A stretch of 64,000 nt of DNA from an uncultured Clostridium sp. (GCA_900553945.1 USFR01000006.1:52948-116947), one strand, 5' to 3'. Shown: positions 5,729 through 26,288, numbered from the stretch's first letter. Numbers and translations are program-made. The notes: generated from the sequence alone by a model not told the origin.

Positions 5729-5953
5729 TCAATCTATTATTTCAGCATCATCTGGAATAGCAACATCATATATTGTATCACCACGCACTAACCATCTTAG
5801 TATGTTATCTTCTGTACTAAAGTTAAAACCGCCCATTTTTTGTGGGTCATGAACATTAGGATTCCAATTATTAGCAATATTTACTTTTCCTATCTTATAC
5901 TCAAAATCCGAGGCTCCAGATTTCGTTTTAAACATTACCTTTAAATACTTCAT
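5729..5953 (-). CDS. Small hypothetical protein (74 aa) overlapping the 3' end of the RhuM-family gene
   Basis: Protein-like composition (GGFNFSTEDNILRWLVRGDTIYDVAIPDDAEIID). The 26-nt overlap with the upstream gene suggests translational coupling. Confidence 0.45.
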   Translation of the reverse strand: MKYLKVMFKTKSGASDFEYKIGKVNIANNWNPNVHDPQKMGGFNFSTEDNILRWLVRGDTIYDVAIPDDAEIID

Positions 5954-6863
5954 TTGCTTGTTTATGTGAATTTTTTCCTTTTCCTTCTAAAACTTCATAA
6001 TGGAAAACTTTTAGGGCATTTTCTACTTCATTTTTCCAATCTTCCATATACATTGTTATGTTTCTCTCTGCATTATTTTCAGCAATATCCAAAAATAAGT
6101 TTACTAAATTATTTAAATTTTTAATTTCTTGTTCACTTAAATAGTTCTTGGCAATAATTACATCAGATTTTAAAATTTTCCCATCAGGTGAATTTTCCCA
6201 GGTAGTAAGTCCAATATTTTCTTTTTTAGAATTCACTCTTTTATAAACTATTTCAGCAGCAATGTTTCCAGTAATTGCATAATGAAATTTATTTTGAATT
6301 GTTTTATAAAAAGTTATTGCAGTATCACTATTTTTATCATAATCAATAGAACATTCAGCAAATATATCAGTAATTTTTTGATAAAACATTCTCTCGCTTG
6401 TACGAATTAATTTAATTCTTTCGAGTAATCTTTTAAAATACTCTTGATCAGATTTCTTTGCTTTTAAAAATCTTTCATCATTTAAAGCAAAACCTTGAAC
6501 CATATAATCTTTAATTATTTTATTTGCCCAAGTTCTAAATTTAATTGCTTTTTTAGAGTTAACTCGAAAACCTATTGAAATGATCATATCAAGATTATAA
6601 TATTTTGTATTATAATCTTGTTTGCCATTGTTACCCACATGTTCCATTTTGGAACATGTGCTTTTTTCTTCAAGTTCTTCGTCTTCATAAATATTATTTA
6701 TATGTTTCGTAATTGCTGGTCGTTTAACATTAAAAAGTGCGGCTAATGCTTTTGTATTTAACCAAACATCTTCATTTTCTAATAGTACTTCTACTTTTGT
6801 ATTACCTTCTTCATCATTATAAAATAAAATATTTTTCTCATTTCCAATTAATTTTTCTTTCAA
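5928..6863 (-). CDS. RhuM/DinD-family virulence-associated protein (N-terminal Bro-N/KilA-N-like DNA-binding region)
   Basis: NTKALAALFNVKRPAITKHINNIY ... DMIISIGFRVNSKKAIKFRTWANKIIKDYMVQGFALNDERF is characteristic of the Virulence_RhuM family. Confidence 0.7.
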   Translation of the reverse strand: MKEKLIGNEKNILFYNDEEGNTKVEVLLENEDVWLNTKALAALFNVKRPAITKHINNIYEDEELEEKSTCSKMEHVGNNGKQDYNTKYYNLDMIISIGFRVNSKKAIKFRTWANKIIKDYMVQGFALNDERFLKAKKSDQEYFKRLLERIKLIRTSERMFYQKITDIFAECSIDYDKNSDTAITFYKTIQNKFHYAITGNIAAEIVYKRVNSKKENIGLTTWENSPDGKILKSDVIIAKNYLSEQEIKNLNNLVNLFLDIAENNAERNITMYMEDWKNEVENALKVFHYEVLEGKGKNSHKQANEVFKGNV

Positions 6864-6995: not shown

Positions 6996-7030
6996 AGTGC
7001 ATCCAGATTATTACACTGGATTGCACTTTT
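6996..7030 (-). terminator. Terminator hairpin just downstream of the displaced secA 3' fragment; probably the ancestral secA terminator
   Basis: agtgcatccag-attattaca-ctggattgcact followed by a T-run. It sits immediately after the remnant stop codon at 7047-7049. Confidence 0.5.
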
Positions 7031-7046
7031 TTATTATATTATATAA

Positions 7047-7136
7047 TTACGCATTTTTTCCACAACAGTTTTTATACTTTTTTCCACTTCCACAAGAAGA
7101 CTTTATTTGTGTATTATCAATACTATAAAATACTAT
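7047..7136 (-). pseudogene. Displaced secA 3'-end remnant (encodes ...[17 protein letters not shown]), the distal att-repeat of the integrated island
   Basis: Minus-strand translation of 7047-7100 reproduces the SecA C-terminal zinc-finger tail. It is 41/48 nt identical to the genuine secA terminus at 14458-14505. Confidence 0.7.
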
Positions 7137-7572
7137 CTATACTAATAATATCACGGATTATAGCCATTTATATTTATTGTATTATTAGTATTTATTTTGT
7201 ATATGTTTTATTATTTTTTGCAAACAAAATGCAAACAATGTTTACATTCGATTTTAAAATTATAATAAAAATGCCTAGATTGCAACGTACTTAACATACG
7301 CTTAGCTTGTAGCTACATTGTCTAGGTCTTACTAAAAATATTTTACTATATCGAAACTTGTATGTCAAACATTTTTGCTAAAAAATATTAAAGGTAAAGA
7401 CCTAAATCTCTACCTTTTTTACCGTTGGTTATTTGGCAGGTGTGCCAAATCCTGCATCTCTTTTGACCTTTTAAAGGTGTGTGGATGGCACTATTGTCCA
7501 CTTCAAATAACCTAATTATATTGTACTTTTATTATACAACTTTTATTCATTTTTGTCTAGCATTTTTTAGAT

Positions 7573-7956
7573 TTATTTTTCCATATGATTTTTCCGTCTA
7601 TTTCTTATAGTTTGATTCCAAGTTCTTTTATTTAATTTCATTAATGTTATTATTGAGTTTTTATTATGCTCATCATCTTGTCCTAATGCTAACTTTATAA
7701 CGACTCTACCATTCTTTCCTATATCATCAATTTCTTTTAAATATATCATTGTATCTTCATGTCTATTATCTTCAACTATATAGTCTGGATTTTCAATTAT
7801 ACTTTTAATATATGGTCTTAACTGTTTATATTCTTCTTCGTGGAATAATAGTATGTGTTCATATAGTCGTTCATCTGTTAAAATAACTTCTTCAGTTATT
7901 AACTTATCTTTATATATTCCTAATTTTTCTTTATCTAAATTTGTTATATATTGCAA
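7573..7956 (-). CDS. Hypothetical 127-aa island cargo protein, possibly a toxin/nuclease-like domain
   Basis: ORF with a basic C-terminus (RNRRKNHMEK). First gene inside the island boundary. No confident family assignment. Confidence 0.4.
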   Translation of the reverse strand: MQYITNLDKEKLGIYKDKLITEEVILTDERLYEHILLFHEEEYKQLRPYIKSIIENPDYIVEDNRHEDTMIYLKEIDDIGKNGRVVIKLALGQDDEHNKNSIITLMKLNKRTWNQTIRNRRKNHMEK

Positions 7957-7983
7957 TTTATTACCTTCTTTTTATTATAATAT

Positions 7984-8430
7984 TTATCTTACATATTTTG
8001 TATTATTAAAAATATCTAAAGAATATATTTTGTTTTCTTCAAAATATTTGATAAACTGGATGCTTGTATCATATCCTCTTAATTCATTTTCTGTCATGTT
8101 TTTAACATCTTTGACATTTAACCATTTTACATCCAATATCTCATCAGTATCAAATTTAATATCTTCTTCTAATATATCAGCAGTAAATCTTACCATTACT
8201 CGTGTTTCTCCATCTTCTCCATCAACAGAACATATCGGTAATACCCCTGTGAGTTTTACTTTACAGCCCGTTTCTTCATAAGTTTCTCTTACTGCTGCAT
8301 CTGTTATTTTTTCTAATTCATCTACATGCCCTGCTGGAAAATTCCATTGTCCATAACATTTCTTTTTTGCTTCTTTTACCATTAAAATTTTATTATCTCT
8401 TACTATTATACAACCTGCTATAACTACCAT
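7984..8430 (-). CDS. NUDIX hydrolase
   Basis: Nudix box GHVDELEKITDAAVRETYEETG (GX5EX7REUXEEXGU). Confidence 0.8.
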   Translation of the reverse strand: MVVIAGCIIVRDNKILMVKEAKKKCYGQWNFPAGHVDELEKITDAAVRETYEETGCKVKLTGVLPICSVDGEDGETRVMVRFTADILEEDIKFDTDEILDVKWLNVKDVKNMTENELRGYDTSIQFIKYFEENKIYSLDIFNNTKYVR

Positions 8431-8444
8431 TCTATCTCTCCTAA

Positions 8445-9248
8445 CTATAAAATTACTTCTTCTAAATCATTTGGAACATAAACATTACCTAAAAAGAATT
8501 TCTTTGCTTCTTCTATATATGATTTTTTTCTGTTTTTTACATCATTGTCTATTGTATGCCATAAAATCAAATTTTTAGCTTTCATCATTTCCATCTTTTC
8601 TGCCACATCCTTAACTACTGAATGATTTTTTTCACGGGCTTTAAAAATAGGTTCTTCTTTTTCTAAACAAAATGCTTCATGTAGTATCCAATCAAAATTT
8701 TTTATTCTATCACATATCTTTTCAGAGCAAGGAACATCTCCTAAAAATGCTATATTCTTTCCATTATTTAATATCGTTTTAAATCCATATTGAATACATT
8801 CATTAGAGTGTAAATCTATTACATCTATATCATATCCTATAATAGAAAACTTTTTATAATCTTTACAAAAGTTATATATTACTAACTCTTTATATAAGTC
8901 TATATGTACTTTATGAAATGTAGCTGACATGAAAGTATCTATTATTTCTTTAATTTCATCATCACAATATATATTTAATTTTCCATTATATCTTTTCATT
9001 CTATGTTGTTGCATTATATATCTTAATAGTGGAATAATGCCTAATAAATGGTCTATATGTTTATGTGAGATAAAAATATCATGTATTTTATCAATGTCTA
9101 TATTTTTTGACTTTAATTGATTTAATATTTGATTACCACTACCTGTATCTACCAACATATACTTATCATCATTTTCTAGTAAAAAACATGTACTATAACA
9201 ATTTATTGATATTCCTGCCCCAGTACCTAAAACTATAATTTTTTCCAT
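8445..9248 (-). CDS. MBL-fold metallo-hydrolase (RNase Z / beta-lactamase superfamily)
   Basis: Glycine-rich N-terminus LGTGAG, HxHxDH motif (SHKHIDH), and a downstream His/Asp-rich region. Confidence 0.75.
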   Translation of the reverse strand: MEKIIVLGTGAGISINCYSTCFLLENDDKYMLVDTGSGNQILNQLKSKNIDIDKIHDIFISHKHIDHLLGIIPLLRYIMQQHRMKRYNGKLNIYCDDEIKEIIDTFMSATFHKVHIDLYKELVIYNFCKDYKKFSIIGYDIDVIDLHSNECIQYGFKTILNNGKNIAFLGDVPCSEKICDRIKNFDWILHEAFCLEKEEPIFKAREKNHSVVKDVAEKMEMMKAKNLILWHTIDNDVKNRKKSYIEEAKKFFLGNVYVPNDLEEVIL

Positions 9249-9261
9249 CTATAAATCCTTT

Positions 9262-9789
9262 CTATTTATTCAAATAATATTCTAATATATTTCTATCCCT
9301 TAATGCTATAAATTTTGTGTGATATACAGACTCGTATTTTGATGCAATTAAATTATCAAAACATTCTGTAATTAACTTTAATCCATTTTCAGGAGTTTCC
9401 CATAATAATTTAGCACCTTCTTCTTTTTCTTTTTGAGTTACATTCAGTTGTTTTGTATCTTTTATAACTTTTCCTACAAATACATAAGAAATTTGTTTAA
9501 AATTATCAAATGTTTTATATTCTTCAGTTGTTCCTAAACATTCTATAATTTCTACTTCGCATCCTGTTTCTTCTAGCACTTCTCTTTTAAATGCTTCTTC
9601 TGGTTTTTCTTCTCCTTCTAATCCTCCACCAGGTAATTTATATTCATTTTTATTACTCTTATTAAAAATTGCAATTTTACCATCTTCTCTTATCACAATT
9701 CCTCTTGCACCTAATCGCAATCTTGGATTGTCCATTTCAATCGGCTGTTTTCCTATATCTTTATCTGTTATTTTACATATTAAATTCAT
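9262..9789 (-). CDS. NUDIX hydrolase (second copy)
   Basis: Nudix box GGGLEGEEKPEEAFKREVLEETG. Confidence 0.8.
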   Translation of the reverse strand: MNLICKITDKDIGKQPIEMDNPRLRLGARGIVIREDGKIAIFNKSNKNEYKLPGGGLEGEEKPEEAFKREVLEETGCEVEIIECLGTTEEYKTFDNFKQISYVFVGKVIKDTKQLNVTQKEKEEGAKLLWETPENGLKLITECFDNLIASKYESVYHTKFIALRDRNILEYYLNK

Positions 9790-9922
9790 ATTTTTTATAT
9801 TCTCCTCTTTTGGGATATTTTTAAGGAATTATATCATACTTTACTTTATTTGTCTCAATTTTATAAAAATTTTATATTTTTCTTATATTTTAAAGAGCCA
9901 GTAATTATACTAGCTCTCTAAT

Positions 9923-11200
9923 CTAATAAGCAATTTCATATTTAATAATATCTTCAATCGTTTTAGAACTCATTAAATCGTCAAATACATTACTTACATC
10001 TTTCTTGTTTTCATCAGTACTTGTTATATAAAAGTTTTCAGTAGTTTCTATATATTTGTGTCCCAAAATATCAGCAACATCTCTTATTTCTATACCATTT
10101 CTTAAATTAATTGTTGCATAACTTCCTCTTAAATCATAAAATCTACAATTTTTAATACCAAGTTCTTTATGAATTATCTTAAATGGATAATTTAAAATAT
10201 TTCTGCCAACATATTTACCATTAGGTCTTGTAAATACCATATCTGCTTTGTTTATTTGAAGGATATTACTTTCATTCTGCACAATTCGTTGTTCTACTAC
10301 TTTTCCATATTTATTGAGTACATCTTCAAAATGATAAGTGCAATATTCTTTACCATATAACTTTTTCATATACTGTTGTTTCTTTTTATAATTCGTTAGA
10401 GCATTATATACAGTTTCACACATATTAATTTGTCTTGTGCCTTGTTTAGTTTTAGTAGTGCCAATATACCATCTTCCTTTATCATCTTTTGGCTTATCAT
10501 ATACTGTATGCCTAACTTTTATAACTCTATTTTCGAAATCTATATCGTCCCAAGTTAAGCTACAAACCTCTCCTGTTCTCATTCCAGTAAAACAACTTGT
10601 AATAAATGCACAAGTAAAAGTATCATCATCTTTAAATCTATCTAAAATTAAATCAATTTCATTTTTATTATATAAATGTTTCTTAAAAGCCTTTTCATCT
10701 TCTATTTTTGGTAGTTTTAAAGTCAATGTTGGATTATATCTTATAAATCCATATACATCTGTTGCTATTCTAAAACAGTTTTTCAAAACTTTTAATATAT
10801 TTTTATAATATGATTTTTTATAGTTATATTTGTTGCATAAATCAACGATATATGAATTTAGCTTTACACTTGTTAATGAACTTAATCTATACTTGCCTAG
10901 TTCTGGTTTTAAATATTTATCCATTATTGTTTTATAAGTTCTTCTTGTATTATATTTCAAGTTTATTTCACAATAATTTTCATACCAGTAATCTAAATAA
11001 TCACTAAATGAAATTGCTTTTTCTTTAAAACTCAAACCAGTGTTTAAATATTCTGTATAAGCAATATTTCCTGCTTTAATTGCTTCATCTTTTGTTTCAA
11101 ACCCAGATTTATTTATAAATTTTCTTTTGCCATCTACTTTAGCTACTTCAAATTTATATTGATAATATTTGCCTCTTTTCTGAATTGTAACATTACCCAT
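9923..11200 (-). CDS. Tyrosine-type site-specific recombinase/integrase (int1)
   Basis: 425 aa. N-terminal SAM-like region. C-terminal catalytic region with R...HxxR...Y context (DLRGSYATINLRNG ... HKYIETTENFY). Paralog of the 12941-14212 integrase. Confidence 0.85.
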   Translation of the reverse strand: MGNVTIQKRGKYYQYKFEVAKVDGKRKFINKSGFETKDEAIKAGNIAYTEYLNTGLSFKEKAISFSDYLDYWYENYCEINLKYNTRRTYKTIMDKYLKPELGKYRLSSLTSVKLNSYIVDLCNKYNYKKSYYKNILKVLKNCFRIATDVYGFIRYNPTLTLKLPKIEDEKAFKKHLYNKNEIDLILDRFKDDDTFTCAFITSCFTGMRTGEVCSLTWDDIDFENRVIKVRHTVYDKPKDDKGRWYIGTTKTKQGTRQINMCETVYNALTNYKKKQQYMKKLYGKEYCTYHFEDVLNKYGKVVEQRIVQNESNILQINKADMVFTRPNGKYVGRNILNYPFKIIHKELGIKNCRFYDLRGSYATINLRNGIEIRDVADILGHKYIETTENFYITSTDENKKDVSNVFDDLMSSKTIEDIIKYEIAY

Positions 11201-11206
11201 AACTTA

Positions 11207-11452
11207 TTATCTCTCTATATCTTCACATATCGATATTTTTCTTATATTATCAATATCTGATAAATCATTTCCTTCATTTTCTTTTAAAAAATCTTCTAAA
11301 GTAGATTTAAGAATCTTTATACTTTTCAATTTTACTGCTTTAAGTTTTCCTTTTTTAACTAATTCATATATATAATTAGGGCTTGAATGTAATATCTTTG
11401 CAGCTTCTTGAGCTGAATATACTATTTGTTCTTCTCTTATTTTTTCTGACAT
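11207..11452 (-). CDS. Excisionase/helix-turn-helix DNA-binding protein (Xis-like)
   Basis: 81 aa containing AQEAAKILHSSPNYIYELVKKGKLKAVKL, an HTH_17/MerR-like excisionase motif. Located immediately upstream of int1. Confidence 0.65.
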   Translation of the reverse strand: MSEKIREEQIVYSAQEAAKILHSSPNYIYELVKKGKLKAVKLKSIKILKSTLEDFLKENEGNDLSDIDNIRKISICEDIER

Positions 11453-11646
11453 TATAGTTCCATCTCCTTTTCTTTATTGTGTTCTCGTTCCCTTTCTTTA
11501 GCTTCAATTTCATCTAAAATTTCTTTTGGAACTTTTTTTATATATTTTTCATACTTTTTAACTTGATTTTGCATATTTCTTAACTTTACATCAGTTTCAA
11601 AATCCTGATCTACAATTTTATTCTTTAATTGTCTATTTTCATTCAT
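11452..11646 (-). CDS. Small coiled-coil hypothetical protein (64 aa); may be the out-of-frame continuation of the truncated AAA_25 gene
   Basis: Charged K/E-rich ORF directly downstream of the truncated 11718-12314 gene. Confidence 0.3.
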   Translation of the reverse strand: MNENRQLKNKIVDQDFETDVKLRNMQNQVKKYEKYIKKVPKEILDEIEAKEREREHNKEKEMEL

Positions 11647-11717
11647 TAGATCTTTATTATTTGATTTCTGAAAATTTACTCTTTCTTCTAGTTCTTGAAT
11701 ATATTCATTATAAGAAT

Positions 11718-12314
11718 TTACTTTTGATGTGTTCCAGAAATTTTATTAAATACATCACTATCATCTTGTTTTCTTAAATGGTGCACTAATATAATCGCAA
11801 TTTTATTTTTATCAGCAAATGCTTTTAATAATGAAATTTCTCCATAGTCTGCTGAATAATTAATATCATTACTTTGCTTTCTTATTTTTTGTAAAGTGTC
11901 TATAACAACTAATCTTATATTTGAATATTGCTTTAATGCTTGTTCTAATTGCATTACCAATCCATTTGTAATTTTGTTTGACTCTATTGCTATATGAAAA
12001 TTAGAACCTATTTCATCAGTTAACCTAAATAATCTTTTTTGCAATCTTTGATGGGTATCCTCTAACGCTAAATACAAAACATCACATTGATTAGTTTTTA
12101 AATTCCATAATTCTTCGCCTTTTGAAACTTTAATACATAAATCAAGCATTAACCAACTTTTACCTACTTTAGGTGCTCCACAAAATATATGAAGTCCTAT
12201 AGGTAATATTTCTTCGATTATAAATTCTGTTTCGCCTAAAGATGTATATAGTAAATTGTCTGCATTAATAATTTTTAAATCTTCCAAGTTTTCCTCCTTT
12301 CTAGCAAGTAGCAT
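11718..12314 (-). pseudogene. AAA_25/RepA-like replication ATPase (primase-helicase family), apparently truncated at the C-terminus
   Basis: Walker A GAPKVGKS, Walker B-like VVIDTL and a VHHLRK sensor motif. The ORF stops after ISGTHQK, where family members normally continue for about 100+ more residues. Confidence 0.55.
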
Positions 12315-12940
12315 TACATCAAAAAAGGCTTCGCTTTTTTAACTCAAACGAAACCTTATATCAAATTTATACATTAAAATAAATCCCTATATAAGCCATT
12401 AAATGATACAGAAGTTCCGTTTTCTCTTACTGAAAAATTCTTGTGCTTACTTGCATAAAAATTTTTCTTGACTTTTCTATAAAAAACAGAAAAGCCATAA
12501 GAGATATTAGAATATCAATTTAATTTACAGCTAACAAAATTCCTTATACAAGGCATATTTTAATAAGTCCATTAAATATACAATTTTGGACATATCAAAA
12601 AATATTTTGTCTACTGCAAATTAAATATGATATTCTGTAGCACTTACGACTTCTTATTACATCTATCTATTTGTTGGACCAAATTACATTATAACTATAA
12701 AAACCAACATAGGCCTACGAAACTTAAAAGGGCCTCATATCATTTCTGGCTTCCGATTAGTAGGGAAAGTATTTTCTTGCGAAGTACTTTTTGGATTATT
12801 TCTAATCAACCACTATTTTATCATTAAGTTACATAGTGGCTCAACCTACAACAGGGAAATATCTATATTTAATTTTTCAGTTGTATTCCTAATGAATACA
12901 TTTATTTTATATCACCATTTTTATGGTTTGTCAATCGTTT

Positions 12941-14212
12941 TTACAGAAATTTACAAATCTTCTCAAATTTATTTGCTGTCTCACTTTCCATCTTTTCTGT
13001 TACTCTCACATATATATTATAAGTAGTATCAATATTTCTATGTCCTAGCCTTTTTGAAACTGCTTTTATATCCGCACCTGATTCAATAAGTCTTGTAGCA
13101 TGAGTATCTCTAAAGTCGTGAAATCTACAAGGAATACCTAATTCATAATGTATAACTTTGAATGGATATTTACAACTATCAGTCCCCTCATATACTCCAT
13201 TTTTCTTTACAAAAACAAAATCTACTTCTTCCAACGCAACATCAATTTCAGAATATGCATTTATTATTTTTGTTTCTGTTTTATTATTATATGGATTAAC
13301 AACACTCTTTTTATAATGTTTCATATATGTATCGCCATAATTAATTTTATTTTCTTCTTGCTCTTTTTTATAAGTTTTAAGAGCATTTAATAAAGTATCT
13401 CCTATTGGTATAGTTCTATAGCTTGTTTCTGTTTTACAAGTTCCAAAATACCATACTGTAGTTGAATTACCACTTATATGTCTTTTCTTTGTACCACCAT
13501 TTTGATTCTTTTTTAGTATGTTTTTATTTACACTAATTGTTTTATTTCTAAAATCTATATCATTCCAAGTAAGTGCAAATACTTCTGCAATTCTTAATCC
13601 TGTACAATATGCAGTTAAAAAAGCATAATATATACAATGATTATTTTTAAACCTATCTAAAATAAGATTTATTTCTTCATTTGTAAATATATGAGCTGGA
13701 TCATTTGGTGGAACATCATATTTTGGAAGTTTCAATCCTATTGATGGATTTGTCTTTATTAAGTCATTTTCATAAGCATAAGTAAATGAGCCTTTTACAA
13801 CTTTTTTAATATTATTTAGAAAATTCTTACTAAATGATTTTTTGATGTAAATACTATTTATAAACTCTTGTAAAGTTGACCTAGTAATTTGTGATATTTT
13901 ATAAAAACCAATATTAGGCTTTATATGATTTTTTACAATACTACTATATGCTTCAATTGTATGATATTTTAAGTTTATATAGCAATAATTTTGTATCCAA
14001 TAATCTAACAAGTCTGCATAGCTCATATCACTTGGCTCAAAACCGTGTCCTGTATTAATATAATTATTATATGCAATTATCCCCTCTCTTTCTGCTTCTG
14101 CTTTTGTTTTAAATCCTGATTTGTTTGCAAACTTTCTTTTACCATCAACCTTTGCAATTTCAAATTTGTATTGATAGTATTTTCCTCTCTTTTGAATTGT
14201 TACATTCGACAT
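12941..14212 (-). CDS. Tyrosine-type site-specific recombinase/integrase (int2), adjacent to the secA attachment site
   Basis: 423 aa. N-terminus is near-identical in pattern to int1 (MSNVTIQKRGKYYQYKFEIAKVDGKRKF). C-terminal HDFRDTHATRL ... GHRNIDTTYNIY catalytic region. Confidence 0.85.
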   Translation of the reverse strand: MSNVTIQKRGKYYQYKFEIAKVDGKRKFANKSGFKTKAEAEREGIIAYNNYINTGHGFEPSDMSYADLLDYWIQNYCYINLKYHTIEAYSSIVKNHIKPNIGFYKISQITRSTLQEFINSIYIKKSFSKNFLNNIKKVVKGSFTYAYENDLIKTNPSIGLKLPKYDVPPNDPAHIFTNEEINLILDRFKNNHCIYYAFLTAYCTGLRIAEVFALTWNDIDFRNKTISVNKNILKKNQNGGTKKRHISGNSTTVWYFGTCKTETSYRTIPIGDTLLNALKTYKKEQEENKINYGDTYMKHYKKSVVNPYNNKTETKIINAYSEIDVALEEVDFVFVKKNGVYEGTDSCKYPFKVIHYELGIPCRFHDFRDTHATRLIESGADIKAVSKRLGHRNIDTTYNIYVRVTEKMESETANKFEKICKFL

Positions 14213-14457
14213 TTTTCATTTCTCCTTTCCTTTTTCGAATGTAAACATTATAATTTAATTCAAAAATAAAAATGCTAACACGAATGCTAACATTTTTATT
14301 TATTATATTCACTTTGTTTGCAGGTTTAAACTTCTTTATTTTCAAGCATTCCAGAGATTTTGTCCACTTATATGAAAACATTTTGCAAACAAAATGTAAA
14401 CAATTTGGCATGTTTTCATATTTATGTTTACTTATCTAATCTCTGAAAGTATTGATA

Positions 14458-17214
14458 TTATGCGTTTTTTCCACAACAGTTCTTGTATTTCTTTCCACTT
14501 CCACATGGGCACAAGTCATTTCTACCTACCTTAGGTCCTTCATTAACTATTGGTGCTTTCACTTTTTTCTTTTCTTCTTGAGCAAGCTCAGGATTAATCA
14601 TTCCATCAATATCTTCTCTACCTTCACCAGTAATTTTAACTGTGCTTCTTCTTTCATATCCTTCACGTTTCTTTACGCACATTAAAATTTTAGCTACCTC
14701 TAATTTGATGCTATTGATCATTTCTTCAAACATATCTGAACCTTCAATTTGATATTGAATAACAGGATCTTTTTGTCCATAAGCACGAAGTCCAATACCA
14801 TTTTTTAATTCATCCATGCTATCGATATGATCCATCCATTTTGAATCAACAACTTTTAATAAAACAATTCTTTGAAGCTCTTTGAATGGTTCTTCTCCGA
14901 TTTCTTCTTTTTTGGCTTCATATATTGCTAATGCTTTTTCTTGCATTTCAGCTAGTACTTCATCAGCATCAACTTTATCTTTCTTTAATGAATCTAATTC
15001 TTTTATGTTTAATCCGTTTTGTACTTCAATTAAGAAAGCAGCTGTATCAGGATTTTTCTCTGAAAGCTCAGCTCTATAAGTATCAACTATTAAAGCACAA
15101 GCTTCTCTTATCATATTTTTAATTGATTCTGTAACATCTTCTCCATCAAGAACTTCTCTTCTTTGTGTATAAATAATCTCTCTTTGAGTATTCATAACAT
15201 CATCATAGCTTAATACATGTTTTCTTATTGAGAAGTTTCTACTCTCAACTTTCTTTTGAGCAGATTCAACAGCTTTTGAAATTGGCTTAAATTGAATTGG
15301 CATATTTTCATCAGCTTTTAATGCATTATATACAGCAGTAACTTTATCACCACCAAATATTTTCATTAAATCATCATCAAGTCCAATATAGAATATTGAT
15401 TCTCCTGGATCTCCTTGACGACCACTACGTCCACGTAACTGGTTATCAATTCTTCTTGATTCATGTCTTTCAGTACCAATGATTTTCAAACCACCAGCAG
15501 CAATAACTTTTTCTTTTTCTTCTTTTATTTGTTTTTTGAATTTCGTTTCTAATTCGTTAAATGTTTTTCTAGCTTCAATAACTTTTTCATCTTTTGTTTC
15601 ATTATGAGCAGAAGCTTGATTTATAAGATCGTTAGTATATCCAGCTCTCTTCATTTCTTGCTTAGCCATATATTCAGTGTTTCCACCAAGCATAATATCA
15701 GTACCACGACCAGCCATGTTAGTAGCAATTGTAACAGCACCATATTTACCAGCTTGAGCAATTATTTCAGCTTCTTTTTCATGGAACTTAGCATTCAACA
15801 CTTCATGAGGAATTCCAGCTTTTTTAAGTAATTTACTTAATCTTTCTGATTTATCAATTGAAACTGTACCAACCAATACCGGTTGTCCTTTTTCATGAGA
15901 TTTTTTAATATCCTCAACAACAGCATTAAATTTAACTTTTTCATTTTTATATATAATATCGTTTTTATCATCTCTTGCAACTGGTAAGTTTGTAGGAATA
16001 CAAACAACATCCAAATTATAAATCTCTCTGAATTCTTCTTCTTCTGTTTTAGCTGTACCAGTCATACCAGATAATTTGTTGTACATTCTAAAGTAATTTT
16101 GGAATGTGATATTTGCTAAAGTTTTTTGTTCATCAGCAATCTTTACACCTTCTTTAGCTTCAATTGCTTGATGTAAACCAGCATTATATCTTCTTCCATA
16201 CATAATTCTACCTGTGAACTCATCAACAATTAAAACTTCTCCATCTTTAACGATGTAATCTTTATCTCTCTTCATAACGCCATGTGCTTTTAAAGCTTGG
16301 TTAACATTATGAACTATATCTGTATTATCTAAATCATTGAAGTTTTCAACTTCAAAGAATTCTTCAGCCTTCTTAATACCTTTTTGTGTCAATGTAGCTG
16401 TTTTGGCTTTTAAGTCTACAATGTAATCATATTTTTCATTATCTTCTAATTGAGCTTCATCTTTAATATCTTCTTCAATAATAACTTTTGCTTGTAATCT
16501 TTTTACAAAATCATCAGCTCTTTTGTATAAATCAGATGATTTATTTGCTCTACCAGATATGATAAGTGGTGTTCTAGCCTCATCAATCAAGATACTATCG
16601 ATCTCATCAACAATTGCATATTCTAATCCTCTTTGAACCATATCTTCTTTGTGAATAACCATGTTATCTCTCAAATAATCGAATCCATATTCATTATTTG
16701 TTCCATATGTTATATCACATGCATATGCTTTTTGTTTATCTTGTTGATTCATTCTTGAAATATTTAATCCAACAGATAAACCTAAGAATTTATATAATTT
16801 ACCCATCCACTCACTATCTCTCTTAGCTAGGTAATCATTAACTGTAATTAAATGAACACCTTTTCCTGTAAGTGCATTTAAGTATATTGGTAATGAAGCA
16901 ACTAATGTTTTTCCTTCACCAGTTTTCATTTCAGCAATTCTACCTTGATGTAATATAATACCACCAACTAATTGCACATCATAATGTCTCAATTCTAAAA
17001 CTCTTTTTGATGCCTCTCTTACAACTGCAAATGCTTCTGGTAAGATATCATCAAGAGTTTTGCCTTCAGCTAATTGTTTCTTAAAATAATCTTTTTTAGC
17101 TCTTAGCTCTGCATCTGTTAACTTTTCCATTTCAGGTTCTAAACTATTAATTTTGTTTACTATAGGTTGAACTCTTTTTACTTCTTTTTCACTATAAGAT
17201 TTAAATAAACCCAT
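14458..17214 (-). CDS. secA: Preprotein translocase subunit SecA
   Basis: 918 aa with DEAD-like motor motifs and the C-terminal zinc-binding tail [17 protein letters not shown]. Confidence 0.97.
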
Positions 17215-23465: not shown

Positions 23466-26288
23466 TTAATCTAAATACTTTTTCAAGAAAATCCCTGTTT
23501 GTGATTCAGGATTTCTAGTAATTTGCTCTGGTGTACCAACAGCAATAATTCTTCCTCCTGCTTCTCCGCCTTCTGGTCCTAAATCAATAATATGATCAGC
23601 TGTTTTAATTAAATCCAAATTATGTTCAATAACAATAATAGTATTTCCAGTGTCTACAAGCCTTTGTAAAATATCAACCAATCTATGAACATCATCAATA
23701 TGAAGTCCTGTAGTTGGCTCATCTAAAATATATAAAGTCTTACCAGTTGCACGTTTTGAAAGTTCAGTTGCAAGTTTAACTCTTTGTGCTTCACCACCTG
23801 ACAACGTTGTAGAAGGTTGTCCAAGTTTAATATATCCTAAACCAACATCAAATAATGTTTGCATTTTTGTTTTTATCTTAGGAATATTTGAGAAGAATTC
23901 TAAAGCTTCTTCGACAGTCATATCCAAAACATCTGAAATGCTCTTTCCTTTATATTTAACCTCTAAAGTTTCTCTATTATATCTTCTTCCATGACAAACT
24001 TCACAAGGCACATAAATATCAGGTAAGAAATTCATTTCAATTTTAATTATTCCATCACCTTGGCAAGCCTCACATCTTCCCCCAGAAACATTAAAACTAA
24101 ATCTTCCCTTTTGATATCCACGCATCTTAGCTTCATTGGTATTAGCAAAAATATCTCTAATTGTATCAAATACACCAGTATAAGTAGCTGGATTAGAACG
24201 TGGAGTTCTTCCAATAGGAGATTGATCAATATTAATAATTTTATCAATATTCTCTATACCTTTTATCTTTTCACACTTACCTGGTTTAACATTTGATCCA
24301 TACAATTCTCTAGCTAAATAATTATATAAAACTTCATTAACTAATGTACTCTTACCAGAACCTGAAACACCTGTAACGCAGTTAAATACTCCAAGTGGAA
24401 ATTTAACATTTACATTCTTTAAATTATGTTCTGTTGCTCCAACAATTTCAATACTCTTTCCATTTGATTTTCTTCTCTTTTTAGGAACAAGAATCTTTTT
24501 CTTTCCACTCAAATATTGTCCAGTAATAGAACCAGGAATTAATTTAATTTCATCAGCTGTACCTTGTGCCACAACATTTCCTCCATGAACACCAGCTCCA
24601 GGTCCTATATCAATAATTTGGTCAGCTGCATACATTGTATCTTCATCATGTTCAACAACAATTAAAGTATTTCCTAAATCTCTTAGTTTTCTCAAAGTAG
24701 CCAATAATCTATCATTATCTCTCTGATGAAGACCTATACTTGGCTCATCAAGAATATATAAAACCCCTGTCAATCCTGAACCAATTTGTGTTGCGAGACG
24801 AATTCTTTGTGCTTCACCACCAGATAAAGTTCCAGCAGAACGAGATAAAGTTAAATAAGACAAACCAACATCCATTAAAAATTGCAATCTTTTATTAAGC
24901 TCCTTAAAAATTTGATCTGCAATCATCTTATCTTTTTTGCTTAATTCCAAATTATCTAAATATTTCTTAATCTCATTAATTGGCATATCTGTAAGCTCAT
25001 TAATATTTTTATCTCCAACCTTTACAGCCAATACCTCTTCCTTTAATCTAGCTCCATGACAAGTGCTACAAGGCTTTTCACTCATATAAAGTTCATAGAA
25101 ATCTCTCATACCTTGTGATTTAGTCTCTCTATATCTTCTATCAAGAGTAGGAATAACACCTTCAAATGGACAACTAAACTTACGAACACCACTTGCAGAT
25201 GCAAACTCAAAATCAATAATTTCACTTCCTGTACCATATAAAATTTTATCTAAGAAATCCCTAGGAAGCTTTTTAATAGGCTTTTTAATATCAACTCCAT
25301 AATGTCTTGCAATAGATTCAAAATACATTTTAGCCATAGTTTCGCCCTTTTTCATTGTGCTTGAACCAAAAGCTTTAACACCATCATACAAAGTTTTGCT
25401 TTTATCAGGAATAATTAAATCCTCATCCATTCTCATTAAATATCCAATACCTGTACATTCAGGGCAAGCACCTTGAGGATTGTTAAAAGAAAACATTCTA
25501 GGAGACAATTCCTCAAAACTTATTCCGCAATCAGGGCAAGCATAATTTTGACTATAAATTCTTTCTCCTTTTCCAATAGCATCAATAGTAACTAAGTTAT
25601 TTGCATATTTTAAAGCAGTTTCAACAGATTCAGTTAAACGATTTCTAATATCTTCTTTTATAACTAATCTATCAACAATAATATCAATATTATGTTTTTT
25701 CTTTCTATCAATCTCAATATCATCAGATAATTCATACATAGTTCCATCAACTCTAGCTCTAACAAAACCATCTTTTTGGAAATCATCTAATAACTTAACA
25801 TATTCACCTTTTTTACCCCTTACAACAGGTGCTAAAACCTGAATCCTAGTTCCTTCAGGCAATTCCAAAATATTATCAACAATCTGGTCTATTGACTGTT
25901 TCTCAATTTTCTTACCACACTTAGGACAGTATGGAACACCAATTCTAGCATATAATAAACGAATAAAATCATAAATCTCAGTAACCGTTCCAACTGTAGA
26001 ACGAGGATTTTTAGACGTAGTTTTTTGATCTATAGAAATAGCTGGTGATAACCCCTCAATGCTCTCAACATCAGGCTTTTCCATTAATCCTAAAAATTGT
26101 CTTGCATAAGAAGATAAACTCTCAACATATCTTCTTTGCCCCTCAGCATATAATGTATCAAAAGCAAGAGATGATTTACCAGAACCTGAAAGTCCAGTTA
26201 TAACAACTAATTTATCTCTTGGTATCTCTAAATTAATATTTTTTAAATTGTGTACTTTTGCTCCCTTTATAACAATAGAATCATTCAT
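23466..26288 (-). CDS. uvrA: Excinuclease ABC subunit A
   Basis: 940 aa with two ABC modules (GLSGSGKSS / [17 protein letters not shown] twice) and zinc-finger cysteines. Confidence 0.97.

Follow-up and report, generated by a model that had tools for sequence, protein, structure and literature searches.

In phage lambda, the N-terminal domain of the integrase Int binds the arm-type sites of attP (P1, P2 and P'1–P'3). A comparable arrangement probably exists in a small genomic island that sits within the final codons of secA in a 64,000-nucleotide stretch of DNA from an uncultured Clostridium sp. (GCA_900553945.1 USFR01000006.1:52948-116947; the whole stretch is called the window below, and positions are counted from its first letter). 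The island is 7,411 bp long, encodes two tyrosine integrases, Int1 and Int2, and carries copies of a short repeat, TGYAAACA(A), near both ends; comparison with related loci suggests, with a probability of about 0.8, that these copies serve the heterobivalent tyrosine integrases of the island as arm-type (accessory) binding sites. As in lambda, the repeats are short, do not resemble the core and occur in both arms of an attP of a few hundred base pairs, with a tandem run spaced by about one helical turn; there is also a separate, predicted N-terminal arm-binding domain, and an excisionase-like gene adjoins int. Unlike in lambda, the tandem sets of the two arms share one orientation, insertion goes into the 3' end of a protein gene and not into an intergenic attB, the sequence of the sites is different, and no similarity of the N-terminal domain to that of lambda Int was detected.

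Other described elements share different parts of this arrangement. For integrases of the Tn916/Tn1549 type, the arm-type repeats are those called DR2, and the N-terminal domain that binds DNA is a three-stranded sheet (PMC8138268, PMC5871717). The solved relatives of the core-binding and catalytic parts of Int1 include 3NKH and Tn1549 Int (E = 2e-12), and the likeness continues in a predicted strands-then-helix N-terminal domain and in the PF14657 family. In contrast to the loose target choice of Tn916-type elements, however, the secA islands are strictly secA-specific; they are also small (2.6–9 kb), and no conjugation genes were seen in them. The marks of the IntTn916 subgroup are its clade placement and, in the catalytic domain, a beta-stranded insertion that separates strands 2 and 3 (PMC8138268); the model of the catalytic domain is poor here, with a predicted local distance difference test score (pLDDT) below 50 over residues 293–423.

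Accretion of integrative and conjugative, integrative and mobilizable, and cis-mobilizable elements at the 3' ends of housekeeping genes, in tandem arrays, is documented for Firmicutes in the streptococci (PMC4701971, PMC5357655, PMC5704250). The secA islands likewise place a tyrosine integrase at the 3' end of a conserved gene, restore the coding end and form tandem arrays of related elements at one site, but they differ in the target itself, in their hosts (uncultured gut and rumen Clostridia and Bacilli) and in the presence of two integrases in many islands. Several tyrosine recombinases occur within one unit in Tn554 (tnpA/tnpB) and in RIT elements. The same is true of the islands known as GInts (PMC5385486). 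All of these resemble the secA islands in having more than one tyrosine recombinase per mobile unit; their recombinase genes, however, lie next to each other in one operon, whereas the pair in the secA island would stand on opposite sides of attP in the circular form, both with an arm-binding domain of the same specificity class.

The bounds of the island were set with a metagenome contig of a close relative that has no island at its secA end (L077). In the window, secA occupies 14458..17214 (-); its last 49 nt recur at 7046-7094 with 88% identity. The region between the two copies has a G+C content of 25%, against 29% for the whole window, and all of its genes are on the minus strand. The island-free contig is 99.5% identical to the downstream flank over 203 nt (window 7094-6892) and 96% identical to the secA end. 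When the secA junction, the far junction and L077 are aligned three ways, the secA junction tracks L077 as far as TGTGGAAGTGGAAA and the far junction tracks it from TGTGGAAGTGGAAA on; because the alignment switches at that block, the crossover is placed inside these 14 nt. This common core lies at 14492..14505 (-) on the secA side, where it encodes C-G-S-G-K of the SecA C-terminal zinc motif, and at 7081..7094 (-) at the far junction. The last 11 codons of secA and its stop (14458..14491, -) are an island-borne replacement, which differs from the attB of L077 by synonymous changes and encodes the same amino acids, while the displaced native end (7047-7080, -) is identical to L077. Outside the core, the likeness of the two secA copies thus stems from the synonymous version of these 11 codons that the island carries. 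Beyond the remnant, a hairpin at about 6997-7030, read by eye and called by no tool, is taken to be the native terminator of secA. Reconstruction gives an attP of about 350 bp, with the junction ...AAAGTCTTCT-TGTGGAAGTGGAAA-GAAATACAAGAAC....

The crossover was first placed in the longest stretch over which both secA copies are identical, the 17-nt TTTTTTCCACAACAGTT (7054-7070 / 14465-14481), a placement refuted by L077. A first exact search of metagenome contigs for an island-free junction gave no match; it was a second search, on the downstream flank, that yielded this contig. Viral contigs searched for an attP-type junction and for the far-arm site cluster gave no match to either; no circular form or phage carrier was found, and a search for tRNA genes found none.

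The repeats in the two ends of the island had been written as AATG(T/C)AAACA in a preliminary description of this DNA, made from the sequence alone. Exact copies of AATGYAAACA number five in the window, at 7228-7237 (+), 7239-7248 (-), 14238-14247 (+), 14393-14402 (+) and 23856-23865 (-), against a mean of 1.1 in dinucleotide-preserving shuffles, none of which (0/100) reaches five; the last copy falls within a 940-aa open reading frame (ORF) and looks like a chance match. The copies reported earlier are therefore real and above chance, with one position exact (14393), one about right (14240) and two (7223 and 7233) some 5–6 nt off. A further degenerate inverted copy, reported at 14455, does not exist there: the position adjoins the secA stop, inside the secA-derived repeat, and what was meant is probably the two degenerate inverted copies closest to it, TGAAAACA (14411-14418) and AGTAAACA (14425-14432), both on the minus strand. 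The status of these two is itself uncertain, as their surroundings, ACATAAAT(A/G), are common to two of the specificity classes introduced below (A and B) and do not co-vary.

The repeat unit is better written TGYAAACA(A). The 8-mer TGYAAACA has 12 matches in the window, 8 of them at 7219-7246 or 14122-14402; seven of the 12 lie within the 304 nt that the two arms comprise (binomial P = 4e-14). The 10-mer with one mismatch allowed is found 24 times against 28.6 expected and so is not enriched window-wide, which makes the signal a local cluster of near-exact copies. The longer matches noted around the motif in the preliminary description hold: TTTTGCAAACAAAATGYAAACAAT stands at 7216-7239 and 14381-14404 with 23 of 24 positions in agreement, and CGAATGTAAACAT recurs in inverted orientation at 7238-7250 (-) and 14236-14248 (+). 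Each TTTTGCAAACAAAATGYAAACAAT match is in fact two 8-mers with 11-bp spacing (7219 + 7230; 14384 + 14395), a doubling that the earlier list had not counted; two real sites are missing from that list, the inverted copy at 14314-14322 among them.

Arranged by their distance to the core, these copies occupy both arms of attP. The proximal, integrase-side arm has TGTAAACAA at 14395..14403 (+), 89 nt from the core; TGCAAACAA at 14384..14392 (+), 11 bp from the first; and, 11 bp further, the degenerate TGAAAACAT at 14373..14381 (+), a weaker assignment than the other two, with a counterpart in the one-mismatch copy that one related locus (L002) has at offset +97. Together these span 89–111 nt from the core, and an inverted TGCAAACAA follows at 14314..14322 (-), 170 nt away. 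The far-arm copies lie 125–145 nt from the core: TGCAAACAA at 7219..7227 (+) and again, 11 bp on, at 7230..7238 (+), the tandem pair thus standing at 125–136 nt (the 7219 site at 125 nt), with an inverted TGTAAACA at 7239..7246 (-) that abuts the pair. All of the sites fall outside the core and are unlike it in sequence. An Rfam search over the motif regions found no RNA family.

The strongest evidence for their role comes from related loci. Int1 has about 1,600 homologues at E <= 1e-20, and a scan of one genome per species gave 76 loci for comparison, which come from gut and rumen assemblies of Clostridia, Bacilli and Erysipelotrichaceae, with offsets counted from a TGYTGYGG landmark in the secA end. 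Since about 50 of the 76 start an integrase gene some 180–260 bp past the secA stop, in the same orientation, the 3' end of secA is a regular target of this integrase family; tandem arrays of islands are common among them. The comparison documents the secA 3' end as a hot spot for integration among uncultured Clostridia and Bacilli of the gut and rumen, of which we found no published description: a literature search for secA as an integration target returned nothing relevant.

Between secA and int, all these loci share one order of features: a direct pair of 8-mers with 11-bp spacing (sometimes with extra copies), an inverted copy, a hairpin with a T run, the ribosome-binding site and the integrase gene. 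What changes is the word, which differs from one integrase clade to another. Five classes of proximal arm can be told apart: A, with TGTTTGCA, which includes the window; B, with TGTCGCCA; C, with TTGTCATCC; D, with TGTTCGCA; and E, with TGTCCACA. The direct pair stands at +75/+86 in classes A–C, as it does in one class E locus and in two of the five class D loci; in the remaining class D loci it is a few nucleotides away, and most other class E loci have it about 10 nt further out. The inverted proximal copy is at +156/157 in classes A and B, and an inverted copy of their own class occurs at +107 to +168 in classes C–E. Cross-tabulated, spacers contain 3.7–4.8 sites of their own class and 0–0.3 motifs of other classes, with two exceptions: motifs A and D, which are nearly identical to each other, and class B spacers, which have a mean of 1.33 A-type matches. 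The far arms repeat the pattern: a tandem pair at -171/-160 or -181/-170 precedes 18 secA remnants (in all class A remnants, the counterparts of the window's 7219 and 7230 sites stand at -160 and -171), and the far ends add three words, TTGACATCC, TGTGTGCA and GTTGAC. In an alignment of nine far arms (A4), the two repeat columns switch together through seven versions, and each element uses the same version in all its copies. The tandem pairs also answer a refutation that the preliminary description had itself proposed, that the motif is common in the A+T-rich background: in 1.03 Mb (the window and the 76 loci), all 34 of the class A tandem pairs with 11-bp spacing adjoin a copy of the secA crossover, in one orientation.

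In two integrase lineages, the word goes with the N-terminal domain. The gene int1 (12941..14212, -; 423 aa; lineage L1) matches PF00589, PF14659 and, weakly, PF14657, with a predicted arm-binding domain in residues 1–58 (14039-14212, -); int2 (9923..11200, -; 425 aa) belongs to lineage L2. Both proteins score above the Pfam threshold for PF00589 (98.9 bits for Int1, 77.2 bits for Int2). By eye, Int1 has the catalytic signature HDFR...GH...Y, while Int2 has YDLR in place of HxxR. Such a replacement is a known kind of variation. The two are 43% identical overall, with 31 of 34 residues identical over residues 1–34; divided by domain, identity is 40% in the body and 75% in the N-terminal domain, and they share the same word. 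Conversely, Int1 and its counterpart in L013 are 85% identical in the body and 62% in the N-terminal domain, and their words differ. Codons 1–34 of int1 and int2 differ at 14 synonymous and 3 non-synonymous positions, and for this reason the shared domain is held by selection and is not the product of recent gene conversion.

Residue 28, which falls on the third strand of the predicted domain, is F in both Int1 and Int2 and follows the word: F occurs with TGTTTGCA (and, in L051, with TGTGTGCA), R with TGT(C/T)GCCA, Q with TTG(T/A)CATCC, Y with TGTTCGCA and W with TGTCCACA. The last two pairings are both seen within lineage 2, where L017 (Y28) and L034 (W28) use these same words. From its R28, L020 was predicted to have a B-type word, and TTGTTGCC is indeed present twice in its spacer. 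The word class thus tracks the N-terminal domain, and not the remainder of the integrase, in two lineages that are about 40% identical elsewhere. AlphaFold models of 15 full-length homologues give strands at residues 5–9, 12–22 and 25–34 and a helix at 37–53 (pLDDT 76–89). A layout of three strands plus a helix is known for arm-binding domains. These domains have been reviewed (PMC8138268), and PF14657, the Pfam family of arm DNA-binding domains, matches 21 of 22 representative N-terminal domains of about 60 residues (best E = 2e-11). The preliminary description had read the motif as an integrase arm-binding site, and this reading is supported by the sites in both arms of attP, the presence of the N-terminal domains and the concerted change of the two.

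Several points weigh against this interpretation. In the window's own proteins, PF14657 reaches 20 bits in Int1 and 21.3 bits in Int2, under the 22.3-bit cut-off; a profile of the 22 N-terminal domains run against the sequences of solved structures has a best E of 0.7, and a fold search of the domain against solved structures gave nothing significant. The support is comparative throughout. Integrase and arms are physically linked, so that some co-variation is expected from descent alone, and class A loci are closely related, so that conservation within the class is weak evidence. The far-arm inverted copy co-varies only in part, being TGTGGAC in class E and GATGTCAA in class C2, whereas class D has TGTGGACA and class B has TGTAGACA. 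The copy of CGAATGTAAACAT next to int1 (14236..14248, +; the inverted match of 7238-7250) shows no class co-variation at all: it is kept in class A only, and other classes have (C)GTTTAC or GTTCA at this place, whatever their arm word. It also abuts the T run of the hairpin described below. That this copy, listed with the others in the preliminary description, is an arm site is accordingly doubtful; the match itself (exact at 14238) is there and overlaps the hairpin tail.

Linkage also lends something to the idea that the repeats are bound by another protein, such as the excisionase-like HTH_17 protein, a repressor of the island or a host factor with a role in shaping att DNA or in controlling int expression, since by itself it could produce co-variation between the sites and any protein of the island. 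The HTH_17 gene adjoins int2, and the proximal sites fall in the interval from secA to int1, the place where one would look for regulation of int1. Yet a minimal island (L001), made up of int and two unrelated ORFs only, keeps every site without an xis, rep or repressor-like gene; in two lineages, the motif class goes with residue 28 of the integrase; and a host factor would not switch class among elements that share the secA target. Better candidates for an excisionase (Xis) or a host factor are available in A/T-rich boxes that do not vary with class (see below), and we regard binding by another protein as improbable, if the most credible of the alternatives.

A much smaller chance attaches to the repeats being replication iterons for the RepA/DnaB-like AAA_25 protein. 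Direct repeats with helical spacing and a RepA-like gene at 11718-12314 might suggest this, but the sites are 2–4.5 kb from that gene, at both ends of the island and at fixed distances from the crossover; moreover, the window's rep gene is truncated by a deletion of about 1.5 kb, and in L001 it is absent and the sites are kept. Slighter still is the probability that the repeats are accidents of DNA with 25–29% G+C, or leftovers without function from a duplicated flank. The very high A+T content and the absence of window-wide enrichment of the one-mismatch 10-mer would agree with chance; the shuffles, the binomial test and the invariable placement of the 34 tandem pairs beside crossover copies do not, and neither does the concerted replacement of words at fixed positions in the proximal arms of five classes and the far arms of seven; these results effectively exclude chance.

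If the repeats are indeed arm-type sites, the 8-mers would be recognized by the N-terminal three-stranded-sheet domain of Int1, Int2 or both, and the secA core TGTGGAAGTGGAAA by their core-binding and catalytic domains. Bridging between arm and core would bend the DNA and build an intasome on the approximately 350-bp attP for integration into secA. As the N-terminal domains of Int1 and Int2 are nearly the same, one set of sites could be recognized by either protein. The excisionase-like HTH_17 protein encoded next to int2 would also take part in excision and might direct it, perhaps with the A/T-rich boxes of the AATAATAC-N-AATAATA type at 7100..7200, between the far-arm sites and the core. 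In alignment A4 these boxes are repeated and unchanged across all specificity classes. Because they are kept in this way, they are unlikely to be read by the class-specific domain, and they may be bound by Xis or by a host protein that bends DNA, or may themselves be bent DNA.

Many of the related islands also have two integrases: besides the window, these are L004, L005, L007, L014–L017, L023, L027, L028, L034, L041, L050 and L063. The lineage 1 gene lies directly after the secA core and a lineage 2 xis–int pair lies toward the far end; because the two are placed at opposite ends, they would flank attP in the circle. The residue-28 class agrees between both integrases in 15 of 16 dual islands, over four classes, while it differs in all four cases of neighboring islands that meet across one core. 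An internal secA-like core between int1 and int2 was looked for and none was found, so the two integrases do not simply represent two intact tandem islands. Single-integrase islands of either lineage exist, however (L001, L058), and for this reason the dual islands may be fusions of islands of the same class rather than an obligate two-enzyme system. We consider it possible, but tentatively so, that in the dual-integrase elements two paralogs flank attP and read one arm code that has been re-set several times in lock-step, in the two paralogs as well as in all of the arm sites, with residue 28 as a main determinant.

The spacer between the proximal sites and int1 also contains a terminator-like hairpin (14262..14297, -), with a 17-bp stem, a 4-nt loop and the U run UUUUUAUUUUU, in the secA/int direction. 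It folds at -15.1 kcal/mol (z = -5.5), and a hairpin with a T run is found at the equivalent place in 20 of 21 representative loci, with differing stem sequences. The preliminary description had noted a tandem aatgctaaca here; the two copies are present (14271-14280 and 14283-14292, 12-nt spacing), but they are the two arms of the hairpin and not an arm site. The stem in the window has only 2 G-C pairs and thus lacks the G+C richness of an intrinsic terminator; a consensus terminator scan missed it because fewer than 3 G-C pairs are present. The stems of its relatives are stronger (-15 to -19 kcal/mol). Since the island separates secA from its presumed native terminator, this hairpin most likely ends secA transcription, and it would also shield int1 from read-through.

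The remaining island genes include the excisionase-like HTH_17 gene (11207..11452, -; PF12728, E = 6e-12), immediately upstream of int2, and the AAA_25 gene (11718-12314, -), truncated to 198 aa by the deletion mentioned above, which removes about 1.5 kb at 11729/11730 relative to at least ten related loci. Between the latter and int1, some 600 bp (12315-12940) have no convincing ORF but are 73–97% identical in many loci, even in loci without a lineage 1 integrase (L059, L062). A 64-aa ORF, two NUDIX genes and a gene for a metallo-beta-lactamase fold, all on the minus strand, are also within the island. Toward the far end, a PBECR2 nuclease-like gene (7573-7956, -) is followed directly downstream by a skipping-rope RNA (RF02924, 69 bits, E = 2e-15; 7428-7511, -) with its own sigma-70-like promoter and intrinsic terminator (7531-7559, 7390-7417). 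This block recurs in L058 (9065-9599) with 91% identity. Next to it, 7275-7368 (-) has a promoter-like TTGACA, 17 nt, TAAAAT and a stretch of about 60 nt with a CCTAGA...TCTAGG stem and a T run at its end; the stretch is kept in L020 and L058 (about 85% identity), has no Rfam match and may be another small RNA.

Some side observations concern the dynamics of the site. In L058, an integrase-free unit (8034-9760), which holds only PBECR2 and the skipping-rope RNA, is bounded by class A tandem-site clusters, and the site cluster after the core at 8110 continues directly into far-arm-type sequence, which suggests inter-arm recombination and element decay in arrays. A RhuM-family/Bro-N gene (5928-6863, -) stands just outside the window's island, past the presumed native secA terminator, and a RhuM-like gene is found within the island in L064 (13507-14532); other mobile DNA may therefore lie beside the secA site. 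Many contigs (L002, L003, L010, L013 and others) end about 2.1 kb past the integrase start, as would be expected if the interior of the islands is repeated or variable in the samples.

Arm-type sites are textbook biology, and the interpretation preferred here, that the repeats serve as such sites for the island's integrases, is in itself unsurprising, although it offers a clean example not previously described. Its value lies in the comparative series: one attP architecture and one target, with at least five and possibly eight arm words, each of which goes with few substitutions in a 60-residue domain. Such a series amounts to a set of ready-made specificity swaps for the question of how three-stranded-sheet arm-binding domains read DNA, and it could supply orthogonal integrase/att pairs for low-G+C Firmicutes. 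If the lock-step re-setting of a code shared by two paralogs is also true, the secA islands would be a natural series of mutually orthogonal integrase/attP sets, all on the same conserved secA core.

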